Shown here: piece by piece, positions 11,734 through 53,987 of the stretch | How the letters are laid out: each line of letters starts with the position of its first letter | Numbering within the stretch: the stretch's first letter is position 1 | Source: Clostridium sp. CAG:609 | GTDB lineage: Bacteria; Bacillota_I; Bacilli_A; RF39; UBA660 | Reading direction: 5' to 3' | Length of the DNA stretch: 64,000 bases | Assembly (NCBI GenBank): GCA_000438075.1 | Contig: FR903546.1 | Coordinates: forward strand, 82,996-146,995 | The notes under the pieces: generated by a model | What the model was told of the DNA's origin: nothing | Seen by the model: only the letters and a program-made list of their open reading frames with translations | The model's database searches: none | Translations under genes and position numbers: made by a program

Positions 11734-13350
11734 ATGAATAAATTTATAAAAAAAATAAAAAATAATCAAGTGTTATACGTATTAAGTATCTTAATAATAG
11801 GTATATTACTCTTGCTTATTGCAAGAATTACATATGCATATTTAGCTCCAAGAATACAAAGTGCACTAAGTAATATAACAACTATATCTGATACAGTAGA
11901 TGATTTTAAATTGGAACTAGGGCAACCTCTAAGTCTAAATGCAACAGCAACAACACTACCAGAAAGTGGTTCAAATTTAGTGGTAACTTCAACAGAAATA
12001 GCAAGATTAAAAGCCAATAGTACAAAGAAAACAGCCAACTACAACTATTATTTATACTTACAAATTACTAATAACACATTTAAATATTCAGATGGAACAA
12101 CACCAGAAATAATACTTACAATAACAGATCCAAATGGTAATGAAATAACATCTTTAGATAATTTAACTTATGGAACATATAATGGTGTATCAGGTTTTGA
12201 TGTAACAACTAAAACTGGTTTATTTGCTATCGCAAATAACTATGAAATAACATCAAACTCAAGCACAACATATACGGAACATGATTGGAATATTACACTT
12301 ACATATCTAAATCTAAACATAGACCAATCAGGAAACTATGGCAATAGTTTTGAAACAAAGTTATATTTACAAAAAGAAGAAAAAGAATTAACGGCAACTG
12401 ATGTCTGCCCAGGTAAATCATTAAATGATTGTGTTATTGCTCAATATACTGGAATAAAAAATTCTAATATATATTATCACGATTCTAACCTAACAAATGG
12501 AGCAGGGGATAACTCATATAGATATGCAGGTGCAAGTAATCAAGTAAATAACTATGTATGTTTTGGATCAAACGTAGCACCATGCCCAGCAGATAATCTA
12601 TATAGAATAATCGGAGTATTTGGTGATAAAGTAAAACTAATCAAATCAGATTATGCAACGACAGCATTATTAGGTGCAGATGGAGATTACAGCAGGATGT
12701 ATACTGCAAATAATTGGGATAATTCAGCTTATAAAGGTAACAATTTAGCTAATATAGCAGGATATACATGGAATTATAATGGATTATCAGACCATACAGG
12801 AAATAATCAATACGGATCAAATACATGGAGTACAAGTTTGTTAAATAAAACAAATTTAAATACAAATTTCATAACAAATATAGGAGCAGACTGGGCAGCC
12901 AAAATAGATACAACAACATGGAAAGTTGGAGGAAATACATGGGAAAATATAGGAACCCAACCAGCTAAAACAGCATATCAAAATGAAATAGTAAGTCCAG
13001 TAACAACAAATACAACTGATAATGCAACAACATATAGTGCAAAAGTTGGCTTAATGTATGTAAGTGATTATGGATTTGCAGCAGCACCAAGTGCATGGAC
13101 AGCAAATTTAGACACTTATAATGGCGAAGCCATTAAAAATGTTAATTGGATGTATATGGGGCTGTATGAATGGACTATTTCCCGTTATGCGGGCTCTGAC
13201 TATCTTGCGTTCGGTGTGTATAGCACCGGTAGCGTGTCTTACAACATTGCGACTTATGTGCTTGCTTTGCGGCCAGTCTTCTATCTCGCATCTTCCGTGA
13301 ACTATGTATCGGGAAGCGGCACAGCCGCTGATCCTATTGTGGTAAACTAG
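11734..13350 (+). CDS. membrane-anchored or secreted surface protein with a C-terminal variable (C-type-lectin-like?) cassette
   Basis: N-terminal signal-anchor and an Asn/Thr-rich extracellular body. The C-terminal motif series reads MYVSDYGFA...NWMYMG.YEWT.SRY...RPVFYL...SGSGT..DP. The last ~200 nt are compositionally foreign (GC-rich). Confidence 0.8.
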   Translation: MNKFIKKIKNNQVLYVLSILIIGILLLLIARITYAYLAPRIQSALSNITTISDTVDDFKLELGQPLSLNATATTLPESGSNLVVTSTEIARLKANSTKKTANYNYYLYLQITNNTFKYSDGTTPEIILTITDPNGNEITSLDNLTYGTYNGVSGFDVTTKTGLFAIANNYEITSNSSTTYTEHDWNITLTYLNLNIDQSGNYGNSFETKLYLQKEEKELTATDVCPGKSLNDCVIAQYTGIKNSNIYYHDSNLTNGAGDNSYRYAGASNQVNNYVCFGSNVAPCPADNLYRIIGVFGDKVKLIKSDYATTALLGADGDYSRMYTANNWDNSAYKGNNLANIAGYTWNYNGLSDHTGNNQYGSNTWSTSLLNKTNLNTNFITNIGADWAAKIDTTTWKVGGNTWENIGTQPAKTAYQNEIVSPVTTNTTDNATTYSAKVGLMYVSDYGFAAAPSAWTANLDTYNGEAIKNVNWMYMGLYEWTISRYAGSDYLAFGVYSTGSVSYNIATYVLALRPVFYLASSVNYVSGSGTAADPIVVN

Positions 13351-13372
13351 GTCAGGCGGGGTGCAAAATAAA
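13168..13372 (+). repeat. GC-rich variable cassette, copy 1 (expressed copy)
   Basis: It aligns without gaps to 29445..29627. Positions 13168..13192 are identical in both copies (25 nt). The block 13193..13272 is hypervariable. The block 13347..13372 (ctaggtcaggcggggtgcaaaataaa) recurs exactly at 31165..31190. Confidence 0.85.
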
Positions 13373-13429
13373 GATACAGCAAAAAAATACTACAAAATTT
13401 TAATATATTAATGAAAGGAAATGAAATAA

Positions 13430-15493: not shown

Positions 15494-15580
15494 ATTAGTT
15501 TATAATGCAAATTGTTGCATATAATAAAAAATGGGAAATACTTAACTTGCTATGTTGAGTACTTGCCATAAATGTGATTG

Positions 15581-15617
15581 GTACTCAATCTAGTTTATGA
15601 TTGAGTACTATTTTTTT
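15581..15617 (+). terminator. rho-independent terminator after the tRNA pair, overlapping the 3' end of the antisense peptide gene
   Basis: gtactcaat / attgagtac stem followed by tattttttt. Confidence 0.65.
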
Positions 15618-15697
15618 ATAATTAAAATCATCAAGGATATAATTAATAAAATGATGATTATTATTAGAAATATAATTAATAAATCTTTTTTCTTCAT
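15608..15697 (-). CDS. 29-aa hydrophobic peptide, type I toxin-like (MKKKDLLIIFLIIIIILLIISLMILIIKK)
   Basis: It is not in the ORF track because it is under 60 aa. GGAGG lies ~10 nt upstream of the ATG. The peptide is a single TM helix flanked by Lys residues. A consensus promoter lies upstream and a 15-bp inverted repeat brackets the gene. Confidence 0.55.
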   Translation of the reverse strand: MKKKDLLIIFLIIIIILLIISLMILIIKK

Positions 15698-15767
15698 AAT
15701 CTATCAAGCCTCCTTCCTTTTTTAGAAGTTGGCAAGTACTCAACAGTTAAAATTTCCCATGAATATA

Positions 15768-15796
15768 ATTATACTATTCGTAAACATGCTAGTCAA
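15768..15796 (-). promoter_or_regulatory. consensus sigma-A promoter driving the small peptide gene
   Basis: On the minus strand it reads TTGACT, a 17-nt spacer, then TATAAT. Confidence 0.6.
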
Positions 15797-16006
15797 GCGA
15801 ACAATTTGTGAAATTTTAAATCAATCTAAAATAATAAAATTAGTGTTTGACAGTATGTAAAAGATATAATATATTATTAGTGTCATCAGCAATAAAAAGA
15901 TGATTAATATAAGAAAAGTAATTAATAAAAATGAACAAGAAAGTCAATCGAAAATGGTTGATTTTTTTGTATGCTTGATATAGAATATAACCCGAGGTGA
16001 AAAGCT

Positions 16007-16843
16007 ATGAACCAAGGAATAAATGAAATATTAATTGAGTTTGTTAATACTATGATACAAACATTTCCAAAAGATGATTTAGTATTACTAAATAATAATT
16101 TAAAGAAACTAAATATTGTTACAAGAAGTTTTAAGTTATCTAATGTTTTAAAACATGAAAATACCGGAGCACAATGGATACCAGAAAAAAATAGAATTGA
16201 AATATCTTTACAAAACTATAGAAACACTATTAACCATGAACTATTGCATGTTGCAAGTACATATATTAGTGATAATAATATGATTCATTGTGGTTTTTAT
16301 AAATATTTAAATGAACATAGTAACATCGGAGAATCAATTAATGAGGGATATACCCAATACCTAGCAGAAAAATACTTTACTAAGTATCCTATATTAAAAG
16401 CCTATACATATGAAAAACAAATAGCTTCTGCTATAGAATTAATAATTGGAAGAAAATTAATGCAAAAACTATATTTTAATGCAGATTTAAATGGATTAGT
16501 ATTATCTTTAGAGAACTTTGAATCAATCGATAATATATATACATTTTTAAATAAAATGGATTATGTAACAAAAACTAAAAAAGATAAAAGAATAATCAGC
16601 GTATTAAAAGAAATAAATTATTTTGTAACAAGCATGTATCTTAGAAAAGTTATGAAAGAAAATAAAGATATAGACATAAAAGATCTAATAAAAAGAATGC
16701 TTCCATTAATAATGGTTCTTCCTAGTCAAATGACTATAGATAAAGTGGCATATAAAATAAATGATGATAATGAAGTATTTAGTATAATAAATAATGTCTA
16801 TAATGAATTTCAAAACAAATCAACAAAAAATTTTAAAAAATGA
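16007..16843 (+). CDS. hypothetical protein with an HExxH motif (putative zinc metallopeptidase)
   Basis: HELLH, followed ~30 aa later by NEGYTQ (a possible third ligand Glu). No further family recognition. Confidence 0.4.
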   Translation: MNQGINEILIEFVNTMIQTFPKDDLVLLNNNLKKLNIVTRSFKLSNVLKHENTGAQWIPEKNRIEISLQNYRNTINHELLHVASTYISDNNMIHCGFYKYLNEHSNIGESINEGYTQYLAEKYFTKYPILKAYTYEKQIASAIELIIGRKLMQKLYFNADLNGLVLSLENFESIDNIYTFLNKMDYVTKTKKDKRIISVLKEINYFVTSMYLRKVMKENKDIDIKDLIKRMLPLIMVLPSQMTIDKVAYKINDDNEVFSIINNVYNEFQNKSTKNFKK

Positions 16844-28728: not shown

Positions 28729-28830
28729 GCACTTTATGTGCTTTTTTTCATTTCATCATAAAGTTTCAAACTTTGTTCATTTACATATTTTATTTCTTGT
28801 GATAAAATTATTAATAAGGTGGTAAGTAAT

Positions 28831-29577
28831 ATGAATAATGATATACTAGTAATAATCAATTGGTATGAAGAAAATATAAACAATTTAGATCATGCTCTAG
28901 AAAGGTTAAATGAAGTATTTAAAAATATAATAATTTGTAATAGATCAAATATTTTAATACCAATAAAAAACTTCAAAGTAATAAAATCTGATGATTATAA
29001 TGGCTTTTTAAATGAAATAAATAGTTATATAAATGAATTTAATATCCAAGTTAAATCATTAGTATTCGTAGATGATATAATTAATACAACATATGATGAT
29101 ATAGTAAAATGTGGTATGGAAGCCATTGAAAATAAATATAAAATAATTCAAGGATTTAATGATAATTACTTATTTGGAGAAAAATTTATAAATAATTTAT
29201 TTAATATGCTATTTAATACTCGTTTTAAGAGCGTTTTACCAGACATTAAGGCAATTAATATAGATTTATATAAAAGTCTCTTAGAAAAGATAAATAAAGA
29301 CGATTATAACACTAATAATTATTTAATAACTGCAGTTAATGAAAATATTCATATAAAAGAAAAAAATATAAAGACAATATGGCGAAAAAATCAAAAAAGA
29401 GTAGGGTGGAGTAAAGAAAGGGCATTACCCTATCTAAAGTTTGGGAATGGACTATTTCCCGTTATGCGGACCTTGCCTTTTATGTGTTCTATGTGTATTA
29501 CACCGGTTTCGTGCTCAACAGCAATGCGTTTAATGCGTACGGGGTGCGCCCAGTCTTCTATCTCTCATCTTCCGTGA
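28831..29577 (+). CDS. glycosyltransferase-like ORF whose 3' end runs out of frame into the GC-rich cassette (chimeric, probably truncated)
   Basis: The AT-rich part (to ~29395) has a GT-A-like layout (ILVIINWYEE..., VFVDDI). The last ~55 codons read the cassette in a frame different from the one homologous to 13168..13350. Confidence 0.4.
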   Translation: MNNDILVIINWYEENINNLDHALERLNEVFKNIIICNRSNILIPIKNFKVIKSDDYNGFLNEINSYINEFNIQVKSLVFVDDIINTTYDDIVKCGMEAIENKYKIIQGFNDNYLFGEKFINNLFNMLFNTRFKSVLPDIKAINIDLYKSLLEKINKDDYNTNNYLITAVNENIHIKEKNIKTIWRKNQKRVGWSKERALPYLKFGNGLFPVMRTLPFMCSMCITPVSCSTAMRLMRTGCAQSSISHLP

Positions 29578-29627
29578 ACTATGCATCGGGAAGCGGCACA
29601 GCCACTGATCCGATTTTGGTAACTTAA
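29445..29627 (+). pseudogene. orphan promoterless copy of the variable C-terminal cassette (EWTISRYADLAFYVFYVYYTGFVLNSNAFNAYGVRPVFYLSSSVNYASGSGTATDPILVT*)
   Basis: 61 codons colinear with 13168..13350. The frame is intact but there is no upstream coding body. Confidence 0.75.
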
Positions 29628-31112
29628 TACTGGACAGTTTTGAAAAACAGCTAATAAAATAAGGTAAAAGTTGAAAAGTAATAAAAGTCATGATTTTTAA
29701 TTAATTTCATGTCTTTTTTTCATGCTGAAAATAGGCAATATAAATTACCTTTTAAAAAGTTGTAAATAATGATTTAAAGCTAAGCGTCATACAGAGTGAA
29801 ATTAATAGGGAGTCTAAAATACCTTTTACAATTTTGTGCTGATGCCATTTTAAAAAGCAATAAACCAGTTTTAAATCTTGATATTACTCTATGGGATCTG
29901 GTTGAATTTGTACCTTTTCTTGTTGGTGTTATTCCAATTTTTCTATAACAAGCACTGTTTTTTGAAACTTCCGTACCAAGACATGTTAAAAAAATACTAG
30001 CAATACATACTAGAGAATATAAGTTATCAAATGCATGTATCTTTTTTATACCACTTTCTTCTAAATAAAATCCATTTGTTTTTTGAGATTTAAATAAGAA
30101 TTCAATAGAACCAAATCTGTAACCATAATATATTTTAGCAAGTTTGGGTCTTCCGTTGGTAATTAAAAGCCATGCTTCTTTATGATTTTTACTTTTACAA
30201 TATGCTAGATTAAATATATATTTTTTTCTGGTAAATTCCAAATTGTGGTAAAGTTTGGATGCGTGAACAAGATGTGGTAAATCTTTAATTGGCATCCAAA
30301 CTTTATGATCTTCTGGGTATTTTTGATAAAAAACTTTTAAGTTTGATTTGCATCTAAAAACAAATATATCTCCTAAGCTATCAATGTATTGCATTAAGGG
30401 AAACAAATTACCAAACCATCTGTCTGCAAGAAAGATGATGTTAGCATCTGGAATATATTTTTTTATTAAGTTGTGGCAATATAAAATTCCTTTTTTTAAA
30501 TTAATCATTTTAAATGCTTCACCACTTTCTTCATCTTTTTTTCCAAGAAACACTTCAAAATAAATTGGAATACCTTGCTTTCCAATTCTTACAGTAAACA
30601 TCAATATGGTAAAGTGGTCTTTATCATAAGAATGATCAAACGAAATGTGAATGTTCCTATCTTCATGAGACAACTTATATTTTGATAAAACTTCATTTAC
30701 AATATCATCAAACAGCTTATGAAAAGTATAGTGATGATTATGTAATGTTCGATAAATTCTTTTGTGAATAGAATTCAAATATATAGAGGAATTTAATTCT
30801 TTAAAATATTCAGTTGCTATTTTAACATAGTTAACTGATTGTGCCTGAATCATTGAATAAAACATTCCCGGAACAAAGTTAAGTAGTGTTTTTGATTTTG
30901 TAAATTTTTTAAAAAAATTAGAAAATCCCTTTACAATTGTGTTATTGTTATTATATAATTTAGACATGTGACAGCTCCTTTTATTTTTTTTGATATTATA
31001 ATTATAACAATAGTTGTCACAATTGAAAAGCACCAAATCGGTGCTTTTTTAGATAAACGAAAGATTTGATATAAAATATATACCGAAAACTCAAATTAAA
31101 AACTGTCCAGTA
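29628..31112 (-). mobile_element. insertion sequence (IS4-like or related DDE family), 1485 bp
   Basis: Perfect 14-bp terminal inverted repeats tactggacagtttt (29628-41) and aaaactgtccagta (31099-112) bracket a single transposase gene. It is inserted directly after the cassette stop codon. Confidence 0.85.
29780..30967 (-). CDS. DDE transposase of the IS
   Basis: LADRWFGN, AWLLITN and YGYRFGSIEFLFKSQK motifs resemble IS4/IS1634-type transposases. AAGGAG precedes ATG 30967. Confidence 0.8.
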   Translation of the reverse strand: MSKLYNNNNTIVKGFSNFFKKFTKSKTLLNFVPGMFYSMIQAQSVNYVKIATEYFKELNSSIYLNSIHKRIYRTLHNHHYTFHKLFDDIVNEVLSKYKLSHEDRNIHISFDHSYDKDHFTILMFTVRIGKQGIPIYFEVFLGKKDEESGEAFKMINLKKGILYCHNLIKKYIPDANIIFLADRWFGNLFPLMQYIDSLGDIFVFRCKSNLKVFYQKYPEDHKVWMPIKDLPHLVHASKLYHNLEFTRKKYIFNLAYCKSKNHKEAWLLITNGRPKLAKIYYGYRFGSIEFLFKSQKTNGFYLEESGIKKIHAFDNLYSLVCIASIFLTCLGTEVSKNSACYRKIGITPTRKGTNSTRSHRVISRFKTGLLLFKMASAQNCKRYFRLPINFTLYDA

Positions 31113-31262
31113 ATAAGATCAGAATAAACTAGGATCGGACATGCCTGTCTAGCGCGTCCGCGTGCTAGGTCAGGCGGGGTGCAAAATAAATGTGAAGTGA
31201 AGAAATTGGCGTGGTGGAAGACCCCAACTGCCGCATCTCGCGGTTTGAGCGAGCCCATTAAC
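31113..31262 (+). other. GC-rich downstream flank of the orphan cassette
   Basis: It contains taaactagg plus the 26-nt block 31165..31190, which is identical to 13347..13372. An extra 36-nt segment forms an imperfect GC-rich palindrome (31143..31175). Confidence 0.7.
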
Positions 31263-45081: not shown

Positions 45082-45093
45082 GTGATGGTAAAA

Positions 45094-46758
45094 ATGGCTA
45101 AAAAGAAAGAAATGAATGAAGAACAAACATTTATGAAAAATAAAGAAGTCATAGATATTAAAAAATTTATGCTTTTAAAAAGCAAAGAACAAGATGATTT
45201 AATAATTGATACTTTAAATAAGATGTATGAAGGTGCTATCGAAGTATCAAAAAAACACATCGATAAAGTACTAAATGTTGTATTTGATAACAAAGATAAT
45301 GATACATTTTTGCCTCATTCTTTGAGAGTTTCTAAAAATGGAAACAAATTAATTTTTGAATTTAAAAAAGGTAACAATGCTTTACTAATTTTATTTCTAC
45401 TTGGTTTTTTATTTCTAGCAGGTTATGCAACATATGCTGGAGTTCAATTAATAGGTAAATCAAAAATGAACATCGATTTAAATGGTGATGGAATTCCTGA
45501 TTTAAATATTGATTTAGATGGAGATGGTATATGTGATGTAAACTGTGACACCAACAAAGATAAAAAACCAGATCAAAACATTGATTATAGAAATAGCAAT
45601 AAGCCAACATTTAATGTAGTTCGTCCAGATGGCACTATATTTAATGAAATGAATCAACTAGATGAATCTGGTAAATGTAAATTAAATTGTGATACCGATA
45701 AAGATGGCTGGCCAGATACAAACATTGACTTAGATGGAGATGGTAAAGCAGATATAAATATCGATATTGATGGTGATGGAAATCCAGATTTAAATATCGA
45801 TACAAATGGAGATGGAGTACCAGATGTTAATATTGATGATGATAATGATGGTAAATGTGATCGAAATTGTGTATCAAACATTGTTGCTAACAACAAAGGA
45901 CAACTTGATGTTGATTTAGATGGCGATGGTAAATGTGATATAAACTGTGATACAAACGGTGATAAAATACCTGAAGAAAAAATAGATTACGCCGGAAATA
46001 AGAAACCAATATTTAATGTTCCAGATGAAAATGGAAATTTAACAAATAAAACAAACCAAGATACAAATGGTGATGGCAAATGTGATTTAAATTGTGATAT
46101 TGATAAAGATGGCTGGCCAGATATAAATGTTGATTTAGATGGCGATGGCAAAGCAGATTTAAACATAGACCTTGATGGTGATGGAACACCAGATTTAAAT
46201 ATCGATACAAATGGAGATGGAAAACCTGATTTCAATATTGATGAAGATGGCGATGGCAAGTGTGATCGAAATTGTACATACATAATTGATAAAAATGGAA
46301 AAGGTGGTTCAACAACAATCGGCGACAATGGTGCTAATATTGAAGCTGCTGCATTGGTTGTAATGTTTGAAGATGGTAACAATATAGCATTATCAAATCT
46401 TTATCCAGATGATCAAGATGATCCAAATGTTAACACAAAAGTGCCAGACATCAGATTCTCAATTGAAAATACAACAGATAAACCATTAAAATATAACATT
46501 GAATGGATTGATGTTGAAAATACATTTACAAGTCCAAATTTTTGGTTTAAAGTATCAAGTACTTATAATGGATTTAACCAAGACTGGACAACAGCACCAA
46601 AATCTAATGGAAGAATGGCTACTGAAGTAGTGGTTGCACCTAAATCAAAACAAATTTACACAGTTTCATTTACATTACATGGAACTGGACAACCACAAAA
46701 CTACGACCAAGGCAAATACTTCCGTGGTAAAGTTGCAATAGATATTATCGAAGACTAG
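45094..46758 (+). CDS. single-pass membrane protein with extracytoplasmic DxDGDG (thrombospondin-type-3-like, Ca-binding) and CDxNC repeats
   Basis: A ~95-aa cytoplasmic N-terminus and a TM segment LLILFLLGFLFLAGYATYAGV. Two ~120-aa tandem units are packed with D-x-D-G-D-G-x-x-D, followed by a ~140-aa beta-rich C-terminal domain. Confidence 0.7.
   Translation: MAKKKEMNEEQTFMKNKEVIDIKKFMLLKSKEQDDLIIDTLNKMYEGAIEVSKKHIDKVLNVVFDNKDNDTFLPHSLRVSKNGNKLIFEFKKGNNALLILFLLGFLFLAGYATYAGVQLIGKSKMNIDLNGDGIPDLNIDLDGDGICDVNCDTNKDKKPDQNIDYRNSNKPTFNVVRPDGTIFNEMNQLDESGKCKLNCDTDKDGWPDTNIDLDGDGKADINIDIDGDGNPDLNIDTNGDGVPDVNIDDDNDGKCDRNCVSNIVANNKGQLDVDLDGDGKCDINCDTNGDKIPEEKIDYAGNKKPIFNVPDENGNLTNKTNQDTNGDGKCDLNCDIDKDGWPDINVDLDGDGKADLNIDLDGDGTPDLNIDTNGDGKPDFNIDEDGDGKCDRNCTYIIDKNGKGGSTTIGDNGANIEAAALVVMFEDGNNIALSNLYPDDQDDPNVNTKVPDIRFSIENTTDKPLKYNIEWIDVENTFTSPNFWFKVSSTYNGFNQDWTTAPKSNGRMATEVVVAPKSKQIYTVSFTLHGTGQPQNYDQGKYFRGKVAIDIIED
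45511..46275 (+). repeat. in-frame tandem duplication (units 45511..45870 and 45913..46275) encoding Asp/Gly/Cys repeats
   Basis: The two units align residue by residue: DLDGDG.CD.NCDTN.D..P...IDY...KP.FNV...GKC.LNCD.DKDGWPD.N.DLDGDGKAD.NID.DGDG.PDLNIDTNGDG.PD.NID.D.DGKCDRNC. Confidence 0.85.
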
Positions 46759-51914: not shown

Positions 51915-53987
51915 ATGGAAGAAGATATATTAAAAGAAATTGAAGAAACAAATGAATCAAAAACTAGTAATGAAATAGTGGAAATTGATGAAAATGATGA
52001 AATCAGTAACACTCAGTATGATTTAGAAAAAGTTGAAGAACCACTTGGTAAAAAGAAAAAAGAAAAGAAACCAAGTAAATGGAGTAAACTAAGTAAAAAA
52101 GCCAAAATTATAATTATTGTAAGTGCAGTAGTTCTTCTTATAGTGGTAGTACTTTTACTATGGTTATTTGTATTTAAAAAAGATAATAAACAAAATGAAT
52201 ATAAAGAACCAAGTGTAGTACTTGAAAAAGAAAACTACAAATATGTAGATGGTAAATTAATATTCCTAGATCAAAATAAAAATGAGCTTGGTTCATACGA
52301 ATGTAAAAACAAAAATGAAAATTTGTGTTACATAGCATACTATAGCAACGAAGATGATTTTGATGAATTTAAAAAAGTATACGAAAGTGGTCTTGAAGTA
52401 TCCGTAGCAAGTGATATATATAAAGATAAGTACGTATTCGTATATGATGATGAAAAGAAAGAAAATGGTGAAGTAACTCTATATAACATCAAAGACAATA
52501 AAAATGAAGGAGTATACTCATTAGTAAAAGAAGTAAATAAAGATAAAGCAATAGTAAAAAAGAATGATAAGTATGGAATAATATCTTTTGATGAAGATTT
52601 AGATGTATCACTAGATTATGAATACATGGGATATATTCTTGATAGCAAAGACTTAATCGTAGCAACAAATAATAATTATAAATTAATATCATTTGATGGA
52701 AAAGATGTAAGTAAAACTGTTCCTGGAAAAATAATGAGTTATGATAGCGATAATATAAGTGTTAAAAATGGTACATCATATCATGTATATGATTACACAG
52801 GAAACATGGTAATTGATAAAGAATTTGATTACATAAGATTTGCAGATTCCTATATCATCGGAGCAAATGGTAAAAAATTATTTGCATACGATAGCAAAGG
52901 TAACATCATGAATATGGATGGAATCAAAATAACAAACAGTGACTATAACACTAAATTAATATTTAATGATGAATTACGTCAAACAGGTAAAGAAGAAGCC
53001 TTCAGTGCATCAGTTTCTGGCAAAACATTAAAAATAGAATATGGTGATGAGTATGCAAAAATAAATCTAAGTGAAGGTGAAGTAAGTAGCAACATGGAAT
53101 ACATTAGTTATTTCCAAGGTAAATTATATTTCTATAAAGATGCAGAAAAAAAAGAAATTTTAGGAAGTTATCAATGTAGTTATGCAAACAACTTAAGTGA
53201 TTCAAATCAAATGTTAGAAAACTGTTATCTAGGAAAACAAAGTAATATTGTAAATAATAATGAATATACTAGTTACTTACCAATATATAATAATAGATAT
53301 GTATTTATTGCAGATACAAAAAGTCCAAATGCAAACGATAACATAGTTTTATATGATTTAAAGAATAATAAAAAGCTTGCAACATATAAAAGTGTTGATG
53401 CAGCATTTGAATCTAATGATACCACAGTTAATTTTGTTAATACTGCAGGTACTTTAGTTGTTACCAAAAACACAAGTGATTCATTCGGTCTAATTAATGT
53501 CGTATCAAATAGTGTTGATGGAGTAATACCTTTCAAAGATAAAGATACAAATGCAACTAATGAAAGTATAAAAATAGTAAATGGTTACTATATTACCAAA
53601 AGAAGTGATAAAACAAACCACATATATGATACCAAAGGAAATGAAATTACTAAAAATATGAGTATAAAATCTGATATTGAATCATTTGAATCAGAACACA
53701 TATTAGTAAAAAATGAAAATGGAAAATACATGGTATATGACATGAATGGAAAAGTAGTATCAAGTGAATATGATTATATATTGATAGATAAAGAATACTA
53801 TGTAAGTGTTGATAGTGAAAATATTCTTGGTCTATACAAATATGATAGCGAAGAAAACAAAATTGGTGAAAAAATTACTTTAGATAGCAACTATAAAGAT
53901 TCTTTAAACTTTGGCATAAGAAGTAACCGTGTAGTAATTACCTACAAACAAAATAATGAAACTAAAGTAATCGAAGTAAACATATAA
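51915..53987 (+). CDS. membrane-anchored WG-containing repeat protein
   Basis: Acidic N-terminus, a TM segment (IIIIVSAVVLLIVVVLLLWLFVF), then many repeats of the type N.KYG.I.F.G..V....YDYI. Confidence 0.65.
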   Translation: MEEDILKEIEETNESKTSNEIVEIDENDEISNTQYDLEKVEEPLGKKKKEKKPSKWSKLSKKAKIIIIVSAVVLLIVVVLLLWLFVFKKDNKQNEYKEPSVVLEKENYKYVDGKLIFLDQNKNELGSYECKNKNENLCYIAYYSNEDDFDEFKKVYESGLEVSVASDIYKDKYVFVYDDEKKENGEVTLYNIKDNKNEGVYSLVKEVNKDKAIVKKNDKYGIISFDEDLDVSLDYEYMGYILDSKDLIVATNNNYKLISFDGKDVSKTVPGKIMSYDSDNISVKNGTSYHVYDYTGNMVIDKEFDYIRFADSYIIGANGKKLFAYDSKGNIMNMDGIKITNSDYNTKLIFNDELRQTGKEEAFSASVSGKTLKIEYGDEYAKINLSEGEVSSNMEYISYFQGKLYFYKDAEKKEILGSYQCSYANNLSDSNQMLENCYLGKQSNIVNNNEYTSYLPIYNNRYVFIADTKSPNANDNIVLYDLKNNKKLATYKSVDAAFESNDTTVNFVNTAGTLVVTKNTSDSFGLINVVSNSVDGVIPFKDKDTNATNESIKIVNGYYITKRSDKTNHIYDTKGNEITKNMSIKSDIESFESEHILVKNENGKYMVYDMNGKVVSSEYDYILIDKEYYVSVDSENILGLYKYDSEENKIGEKITLDSNYKDSLNFGIRSNRVVITYKQNNETKVIEVNI

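Follow-up and report, generated by a model that had tools for sequence, protein, structure and literature searches.

Introduction

Diversity-generating retroelements (DGRs) are reverse-transcriptase (RT) systems that mutate adenine-templated codons, the sequences involved being termed the variable region (VR) and the template repeat (TR). Here we analysed a 64-kb stretch of the Clostridium sp. CAG:609 genome (contig FR903546.1), which is the part of the host DNA covered by this work and is called the window below, and in which the G+C-rich 3' end of a gene for a protein of 538 amino acids (aa) recurs in altered form at a second locus. We propose that these two copies, VR1 and VR2, are the VRs of two DGR target genes, which have probably become fossil in this genome lineage and are no longer served by an active DGR.

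The closest described systems are the 'architecture D' DGRs, in which the target is followed by the TR, a MutS-like (MSL) gene, avd and the RT gene (Wu et al. 2018, Nucleic Acids Res 46:11; PMC5758913); the DGR of Legionella likewise has an MSL gene. Cassettes with the same gene order, encoding an RT of ~360 aa with the motifs [LIV]GxxxSQ and YMDD, lie beside members of our gene family in L013, L111, L114 and others (labels of the type L013 denote fetched genome or contig loci, those of the type P0123 denote protein relatives, and coordinates are window positions unless a locus is named). The mismatches in these relatives are exclusively of the A-to-N type, and a G+C-rich end resembling the initiation of mutagenic homing (IMH) site and downstream inverted repeats are likewise found. 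The window differs from architecture D in that it holds the target-side half, namely the two VRs, while TR, MSL, avd and RT are absent from it, in that its VRs are invariant among strains, and in its host clade, which comprises metagenome-assembled genomes (MAGs) of uncultured low-G+C gut Bacilli or 'Tenericutes'.

A second related group is that of the tentaclins of gut phages and Faecalibacterium prophages, where DUF6273 domains have been modelled as C-type-lectin-like DGR targets (PMC10743442). As in these, the VR described here lies in a DUF6273-related domain ending ...G(V/A)RP(V/S)F.L...SGSG..P, its variable residues come from the set reachable from AAY codons, and Ig/fn3-like domains are combined with it in an 895-aa paralog. 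In contrast to the tentaclins, the window genes are chromosomal, possess an N-terminal membrane anchor or signal and belong to no recognisable prophage; moreover, the VR domain is C-terminal here but N-terminal there, and its Pfam match falls under the curated cut-off. The feature is a known kind of system, with no new mechanism, in a poorly described host clade and protein family.

Results

Two copies of a variable region in the window

Upon realignment, the last 61 codons of the 538-aa gene (13168..13350) matched 29445..29627 without a gap, as a preliminary description made from the window's sequence had reported. Its counts were also reproduced: the leading 25 nucleotides (nt) are the same in VR1 and VR2, 31 differences follow within 13193..13272, of which 11, 16 and 4 fall at codon positions 1, 2 and 3, and CCAGTCTTCTATCTC is then invariant. 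For the remaining tail, where about nine differences had been stated, their scarcity was borne out, while the recount gave eight before the stop codon. Each flank motif occurs exactly twice in the window and not at all in shuffled sequence. The abrupt shift to about 50% G+C was evident as well, with values of 0.47-0.50 over 13150..13349 against 0.27 for the whole window, and the AT skew over this G+C-rich 3' end falls to between -0.28 and -0.44, indicating that adenines are avoided. The 6-bp hairpin described in the coding tail is indeed perfect (Table 1); in 21 loci its alignment columns 41/51 hold C-G in 10, T-A in 8 and T.G in 3, and since the pair state (C-G or T-A) is linked to the haplotype of the loop, it provides no clean covariation. 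In the window no intact gene ends in the second copy: in-frame stops lie just upstream of it, and homology to the first copy starts abruptly at GAATGG.

The window was then searched for the remaining parts of a DGR. Neither flank motif has a third copy in it, and it contains neither the TR 5' flank (GGGTAATCTTGTG...) nor any homology to pre-TR or spacer sequence; a six-frame motif scan and tblastn with the L013 RT yielded no DGR RT (best E=0.46), and Avd or MutS-like sequences were also absent from its 64 kb. The motif scan and homology searches thus confirm the earlier statement that the window contains no RT, avd or TR.

Table 1. Positions of the variable regions and associated features in the window
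Feature	Position	Strand	Basis
538-aa target gene: N-terminal membrane anchor or signal, variable middle, C-terminal DUF6273-like domain bearing VR1	11734..13350	+	Open reading frame (ORF) and translation
VR1, 100 nt homologous to DGR TRs (ATTTCCCGT...CGGCCAG)	13177..13276	+	Alignment to L013 TR
IMH-like end of VR1: adenine-free G+C-rich stretch to CCAG, then TCTTCTATCTC, where TR homology stops	13258..13287	+	L013 TR/VR comparison
G+C-rich inverted repeat, 6 bp, AGCGGC-ACA-GCCGCT, within coding tail	13315..13329	+	Sequence
Remnant of conserved post-stop element, 27 nt	13347..13373	+	Comparison with L011, L012, L013
5' two-thirds of unrelated gene (326 aa elsewhere), fused out of frame to VR2 at 29440/29441	28819..29440	+	Seven assemblies
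VR2 fragment, final 62 codons of a gene encoding 895 aa in other strains	29441..29627	+	L100/L101 alignment
VR2 part homologous to TR	29454..29553	+	Alignment to L111/L114 TR
VR2 hairpin, one mismatch	29592..29606	+	Sequence
IS4-family insertion element	29629..31111	-	NCBIfam IS4 family transposase, E=1e-20
Transposase ORF of IS4-family element, 418 aa	29780..31036	-	ORF and NCBIfam
13-bp terminal inverted repeats of IS4-family element	29629..29641 and 31099..31111		Read from sequence
Final 18 nt of another VR gene (...IRIN stop; stop codon 31130..31132) and 121 nt of post-stop element	31115..31253	+	86-97% identity to post-stop sequence in >12 loci

The differences fall mostly on adenines of templates in related genomes

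In MAGs of related gut Bacilli, cassettes lie directly behind orthologous genes in the order target with VR, TR, MutS-like gene, avd and DGR-type RT, and the signature of their TRs is GGGTAATCTTGTGNNNAAATTTCCCGTAATGCGGACAAT...AGACCTTTATAG. L013 carries a gene closely resembling the 538-aa gene, with a VR at 1291-1390, a G+C-rich post-stop element and a TR at 1718-1817, 427 nt downstream of the VR. All 17 mismatches between this VR and its own TR are at TR adenines, and identity stops at ...GTGCGTCCAG, from where the TR goes on with AGACCTTTATAG and the VR with TCTTCTATCTC. The same locus encodes a MutS_I-like ORF (E=3e-4), an Avd-like ORF (NF033474, E=2e-7; PF05635, E=0.015; both under the curated cut-offs) and an RVT_1 reverse transcriptase with LPIGNMTSQ...YMDD; RTs of ~360 aa with these motifs are encoded beside TRs in eight fetched loci altogether (L013, L022, L065, L092, L111, L112, L114 and L121), and the RT and avd genes of the cassettes match their hosts in AT-richness. 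L111 and L114 have one TR in common and different VRs, with 15 and 12 mismatches at adenine sites and none at other bases. Protein pairs 98-100% identical over the upstream 150 aa differ at 10-16 of 28 VR residues (e.g. P0123 vs P0126), and in an alignment of 33 distinct 100-nt VRs the column entropy was 1.55 bits at TR-adenine columns as against 0.67 bits elsewhere (p=5e-11). These comparisons show the DGR system to be active in some lineages.

We compared the two VRs of the window with these templates. VR1 differs from its closest TR, that of L013, at 17 of 31 adenines and at 6 of 69 other bases (Fisher p=1.4e-6), and VR2 differs from its closest TR, that of L111/L114, at 15 of 32 adenines and 2 of 68 other bases (Fisher p=2e-7), so that on TRs of related genomes the VR/TR differences lie predominantly at TR adenines, as is characteristic of DGRs. 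The mismatches at non-adenine sites mean that the TRs tested are relatives of the parental TRs and not the parents themselves; a parental TR would read ...ACCGGTAAC... and agree with VR1 or VR2 at every non-adenine site. When the 31 sites discordant between VR1 and VR2 were sorted in the same way, 20 were adenines in both related TRs and one more in one of them, seven tracked two TR lineages (VR1 reading ...CTTGCT.. like the L013 TR, VR2 reading ...TACGGG.. like the L111 and L120 TRs), and three to four were private non-adenine changes in VR1. The lineage-specific sites indicate that VR1 and VR2 were written by different templates, and the expectation of the preliminary description that a single template would have A at essentially all 31 sites is right for only two-thirds of them, 20-21 being TR adenines. 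Its proposal of a DGR origin, on the other hand, is strongly supported for both copies by sequence comparison: cassettes of TR, MutS-like gene, avd and RT lie beside the same gene family in relatives, the differences are overwhelmingly at TR adenines, and the 33 VRs show the corresponding entropy pattern. A scan of the genome collection with the pattern GTTCNNTGTGTATNNCACCGGTNNCGTG gave no match and is little informative, as the pattern fixed both TR-adenine (TAT) and lineage-specific (ACCGGT) bases.

These data also bear on the possibility that the copies diverged without a retroelement, either through positive selection on the binding-site codons of paralogous domains or through gene conversion from silent cassettes. 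Diversifying selection, too, would be expected to cause an excess of changes at codon positions 1 and 2, the window itself has neither RT nor TR, and the many paralogs per genome in this family of at least 8000 relatives could serve as conversion donors. However, the differences fall on the adenines of TRs that lie beside orthologous genes, and TR-adjacent loci mismatch exclusively at adenines (adenine/other 17/0, 15/0 and 12/0). Nor is there in the window any silent-cassette array with promoterless partial donors and mosaic exchange: it holds two copies, both of which form the 3' ends of full-length genes elsewhere among the strains, and the differences between them are single-base changes at adenine-templated sites and not segmental. 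Divergence without a retroelement is thus strongly disfavoured, and we regard it as hardly credible.

The comparison with L013 also delimits VR1. TR homology is restricted to the 100 nt listed in Table 1, with GAATGGACT before and TCTTCTATCTC... after falling outside the TR, and the adenine-templated codons lie within ~13186..13256. The adenine-free stretch GTGCTTGCTTTGCGGCCAG terminates exactly at the end of TR homology in relatives. By analogy with the IMH/IMH* described elsewhere (PMC5758913), this G+C-rich end of VR1 may have served in the initiation of mutagenic homing; together with the inverted repeat downstream, it gives VR1 a further sequence feature of DGR targets. Avoidance of adenine in scaffold codons and the G+C-rich cis elements account for the compositional jump at the 3' end of the gene.

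Many of the relatives are dispersed paralogs, as in the multi-target, remote TvpA family of Treponema denticola. The MAG CAKORY01 has at least 14 VR-domain paralogs (L013, L015-L018, L023, L025, L029, L031, L033, L034, L040, L045 and L081), and L043 fits the TR of L049 with no non-adenine mismatch, although it has neither an adjacent TR nor a post-stop element. In CAKORY01, in contrast to the TvpA family, the TR-adjacent copy alone matches the TR cleanly (17 adenine and no other mismatches), whereas the 13 others mismatch it at 7-24 non-adenine sites. This suggests that most copies were targets formerly, or are served by other TRs, and are not simultaneous targets of one TR; the other CAKORY01 paralogs would be either targets of other TRs or fossil VRs too.

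VR1 is invariant among strains

For VR1, the comparison of strains was anchored on the neighbouring genes. Over nine strains, all independent assemblies with surrounding DNA 97.6-99.6% identical to the window, 0 of the 100 nt of VR1 differ, a count which at ~1.7% divergence is not significantly low and shows only the absence of hypervariability. In eight of the nine strains the remainder of the 538-aa gene differs at 50-105 of ~1443 nt (3.5-7%) and the PfkB gene at 16-17 of 957 nt; in the ninth, near-identical strain, 1 nt differs in the rest of the gene and 1 nt in PfkB. VR2 is likewise the same in L100, L101 and L120, that is, in four assemblies including the window. Thus, the present-day heterogeneity between close strains, whose absence the preliminary description had named beforehand as a result that would speak against its reading, was not observed at either VR. 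Hypervariability among near-identical genomes is found in sister lineages (L111 vs L114; P0123 vs P0126).

Among strains, divergence in the part of the gene outside the VR (11734..13176) is 2-4 times that of the DUF421 and PfkB genes flanking it (~1.5-1.8%), and in strain L001 the gene product is 527 aa long, not 538.

The identity of VR1 across strains could alternatively reflect the recent spread of one VR allele by homologous recombination, as a cassette exchanged among divergent genes, and not inactivity of the DGR. The VR1 peptide is also present in P0121 and P0122, which share the VR1 block and the tail while their upstream parts are just 71% and 85% identical, and the elevated divergence of the gene's upstream part hints at recombination within the gene or at a mosaic make-up. 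Nevertheless, an active DGR would soon re-diversify a transferred allele, yet all 11 carriers found share the sequence, and an old fixed VR on fast-evolving or shuffled N-terminal modules fits these observations equally well. We therefore consider such a spread very unlikely as the cause of the identity.

Downstream of VR1, 27 nt are left of a conserved post-stop element of 148 nt, of which 79-148 nt follow straight after the stop codon in L011, L012 and L013. Missing are 32 nt, GATCGGACATGCCTGTCTAGCGCGTCCGCGTGCTAG, which form one half of the longest hairpin in the element, and everything past ~13373. VR1 still has an intact IMH-like end and an intact in-gene hairpin.

VR2 is truncated and separated from its downstream element

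From 29440 onwards, the window is 100% and 99.95% identical to L100 and L101, where this sequence ends an intact 895-aa gene. Up to and including 29440, by contrast, it is identical to seven other assemblies, which then run on into a membrane domain without a VR (the 326-aa gene). In the resulting fusion ORF (28819..29577) the break is at codon ~208, and TTTGG is common to both sides of the junction. No other assembly on record has the fused product; the 29440/29441 junction is therefore either a join made in assembly or a deletion or rearrangement particular to this strain. Look-ups of exact products found the 538-aa protein, an ABC ATPase ORF and the fused 248-aa ORF absent from records.

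The IS4-family element sits at the very end of the VR2 gene, between VR2 and a post-stop element, and in L120 and L123 this site holds an IS21 element (IstA/IstB), which in L120 is flanked by the same inverted repeats. The homology to post-stop sequence beyond the insertion (31133..31253) stops at 31253, with no TR following. A short block after the stop codon of the first copy had been described as recurring at the second locus; it does recur (26 of 27 nt, 31165..31191), but its position there is 1.5 kb past the second copy, with the IS4-family element in between, and the sequence immediately 3' of the second copy's stop codon is unrelated to that of the first. As the right-hand 18 nt (Table 1) come from the tail of a different VR gene, this arrangement suggests that insertion sequence (IS)-mediated recombination may have taken place between VR loci. 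Separately, the left repeat alone remains at the IS site in L105 and L020. We also considered VR2 as an ectopic cDNA insertion and rejected this, for its homology begins 9 nt before the TR boundary is reached, and in other strains an intact 895-aa gene ends in VR2.

In L120 (5586..5840) and L123 (IMG/VR UViG_3300029424_000015), whose VR is identical to VR2, an orphan TR and spacer are followed by MiaB-like and RecD2 genes. Neither of these two independent assemblies has avd or RT by the TR, and the TR in this lineage carries decay substitutions at non-adenine sites. IMG/VR labels one of the two contigs viral; no phage genes occur in the 5 kb looked at. In L110 and L116, a VR gene and a shortened TR, which ends after ...AATGCGGACA, lie directly upstream of a homolog of the window's 690-aa membrane protein, and represent a further stage in the decay of a DGR, at another locus. 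For the window itself, a DGR remnant in front of the 690-aa gene (51915..53987) was rejected, as the spacer there is plain AT-rich sequence.

The target protein family

The C-terminal domain has at least 8000 relatives, most hits of the C-terminal query being singletons on short contigs, and 310 loci encode it in species-representative genomes. Relatives occur in MAGs titled uncultured Bacilli, 'Tenericutes' UMGS, Firmicutes CAG:460, Clostridium sp. CAG:609, Erysipelotrichaceae and Candidatus Onthocola. Their flanks EWTISR...RPVFYL are invariant and enclose a stretch in which entropy exceeds 3 bits per position, made up of Y, N, D, S, G and similar residues. The C-terminal 200 aa of the window protein matched Pfam DUF6273 with E=0.029 and 14.7 bits, under the curated cut-off of 23.5 bits; a match was found in 23 of 64 relatives (best E=1.3e-6), and a profile of the family matched the DUF6273 N-terminal domain of an IgA protease structure (9qa6_A) with E=0.0014 over the segment W...G.V...GVRP.FYL...SGSG..P. 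These matches indicate that the VR-bearing domain is probably a distant member of DUF6273. One full-text literature search, with 'RF39' as its sole clade term, found no co-occurrence of 'RF39' with DGR terms.

A conserved element after the stop codon

A G+C-rich element of ~148 nt lies right after the stop codon of many VR genes, whether adjacent to a TR or remote from one (L013 1465..1612 and equivalents, including window 31133..31253). It contains several hairpins and is 86-97% identical across species whose genomes have ~27% G+C. The coding tail and post-stop region fold better than shuffled sequence (z = -3.3) and show little true covariation, and Rfam had no family matching the element through TR and spacer. 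By analogy with the inverted repeats of Bordetella and Legionella, a role of the element in target recognition is plausible, although their single hairpin is shorter than the conserved 148-nt element found here after many target genes. As a marker of live targets the element found no clear support: the median number of non-adenine mismatches to the best available TR was 6 with it and 9 without, and clean TR matches without it exist (L043, L049).

A more far-reaching possibility is that the targets in this large family (at least 8000 proteins, with a minimum of 14 paralogs in a single genome) are turned on and off individually, the coding-tail hairpin and the 148-nt post-stop unit acting as a portable landing pad or RNA element that would be new for DGRs. 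Deletion, as at VR1, or separation by an IS, as at VR2, would then freeze a specificity while other paralogs keep diversifying. We mention this idea as a speculative one and think it quite unlikely to hold.

Surroundings of the variable regions

The neighbouring genes in the window are chromosomal and have housekeeping functions (Lon, Mur ligase, Tgt, PfkB, trigger factor, MnmA, FtsW and penicillin-binding protein, PBP), and the near-identical contigs derive from human-gut metagenomes. A strain-variable island lies at 15497..16749, where most related strains have ~6 kb with a large serine recombinase (Resolvase and Recombinase) and a Mob_Pre relaxase, and the window, L005 and L010 have a 278-aa ORF (16007..16843) instead. 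Another ORF (45082..46758, 558 aa) contains 36-nt tandem repeats at 45712..45837 and 46117..46256 (3.5 and 3.9 copies, 73-75% matches), encoding 12-residue units like PD.NIDIDGDGK.

Discussion

The course of events that we propose for VR1 and VR2 begins with an adenine-rich, TR-containing RNA, which would have been copied by a DGR RT together with Avd and a small MutS-like protein, random bases being placed opposite template adenines. The cDNA would then have replaced the VR, guided by the G+C-rich IMH-like end and the inverted repeats downstream, so that retrohoming is the presumed mechanism. Rewriting would have been confined to AAY-type codons on the ligand-binding face of the C-terminal DUF6273 (lectin-like) domain, while the scaffold codons would have had to avoid adenine, giving rise to the abrupt G+C- and T-rich composition, and each VR would have been written by a different TR lineage. 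Subsequently, the cassette seen behind the orthologous gene in a related MAG would have disappeared behind the 538-aa gene; after the VR2 gene, the TR would have been kept in the lineage of L120 and L123 but avd and RT lost, and in the window the TR would be gone too. Both VRs would thus have ceased to change, VR2 being also truncated and cut off from its downstream element by the insertion sequence.

Several points weigh against this reading. The chief remaining uncertainty concerns the rest of the genome: the analysis covers 64 kb of it, and an RT and a TR could lie elsewhere, since DGRs act on remote targets (PMC5758913). The invariance among strains was read from consensus assemblies, where low-frequency population variants are invisible, and its statistical weight is limited as stated above. 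No recovered TR is perfect at non-adenine sites for either VR, with VR1 having six non-adenine differences, and ACCGGT in both VRs stands against ACTGGC in the closest TRs; this imperfect match of all recovered TRs implies that the true parental TRs remain unseen. Finally, of the lectin-like variable domain suggested in the preliminary description, the part that stands is the distant membership in DUF6273, considered lectin-like (PMC10743442), whereas the fold itself is unconfirmed: AlphaFold models of the C-terminal 200 aa and 300 aa had low confidence (predicted local distance difference test scores, pLDDT, of 49.9 and 34.3), as the underlying alignments consisted of close relatives only.

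Given these points, we considered whether VR1, and VR2 where its gene is intact, might be a remote and still live target of a DGR at another place in the genome, diversified rarely or conditionally and hence identical in consensus assemblies. Remote targets have been documented at distances of more than 100 kb from the RT (PMC5758913), the clean fit of L043 to the L049 TR provides a possible example in this very family, the IMH-like end and in-gene hairpin of VR1 are still whole, and intact DGRs of the family with RT exist on human-gut metagenome contigs (L111, L112, L114, L121). On the other hand, VR1 shows no difference in nine strains while the remainder of its gene differs by 3.5-7% in eight, and VR2 is the same in four assemblies. 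Moreover, the VRs mismatch their closest TRs at six (VR1) and two (VR2) non-adenine sites, and the sole TR in the close lineage with an identical VR2 (L120, L123) has decay substitutions and is accompanied by neither avd nor RT. We consider a live remote target unlikely on this evidence and infer that no active DGR is present elsewhere in the genome; the most probable reading is still that VR1 and VR2 are fossil VRs of two DGR targets.

If so, the window would show what a DGR target looks like after loss of the retroelement, with adenine-avoiding G+C-rich codons, a scar of NNY codons and an intact IMH-like end, and reading of the sequence alone can take such a relic for an active hypermutation locus. 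Close lineages would present stages of DGR decay, from a TR without RT through loss of the TR to IS insertion and truncation of the gene. The results also place a large, mostly unannotated family of surface proteins (at least 8000 relatives) of uncultured human-gut Bacilli among the targets of DGRs.

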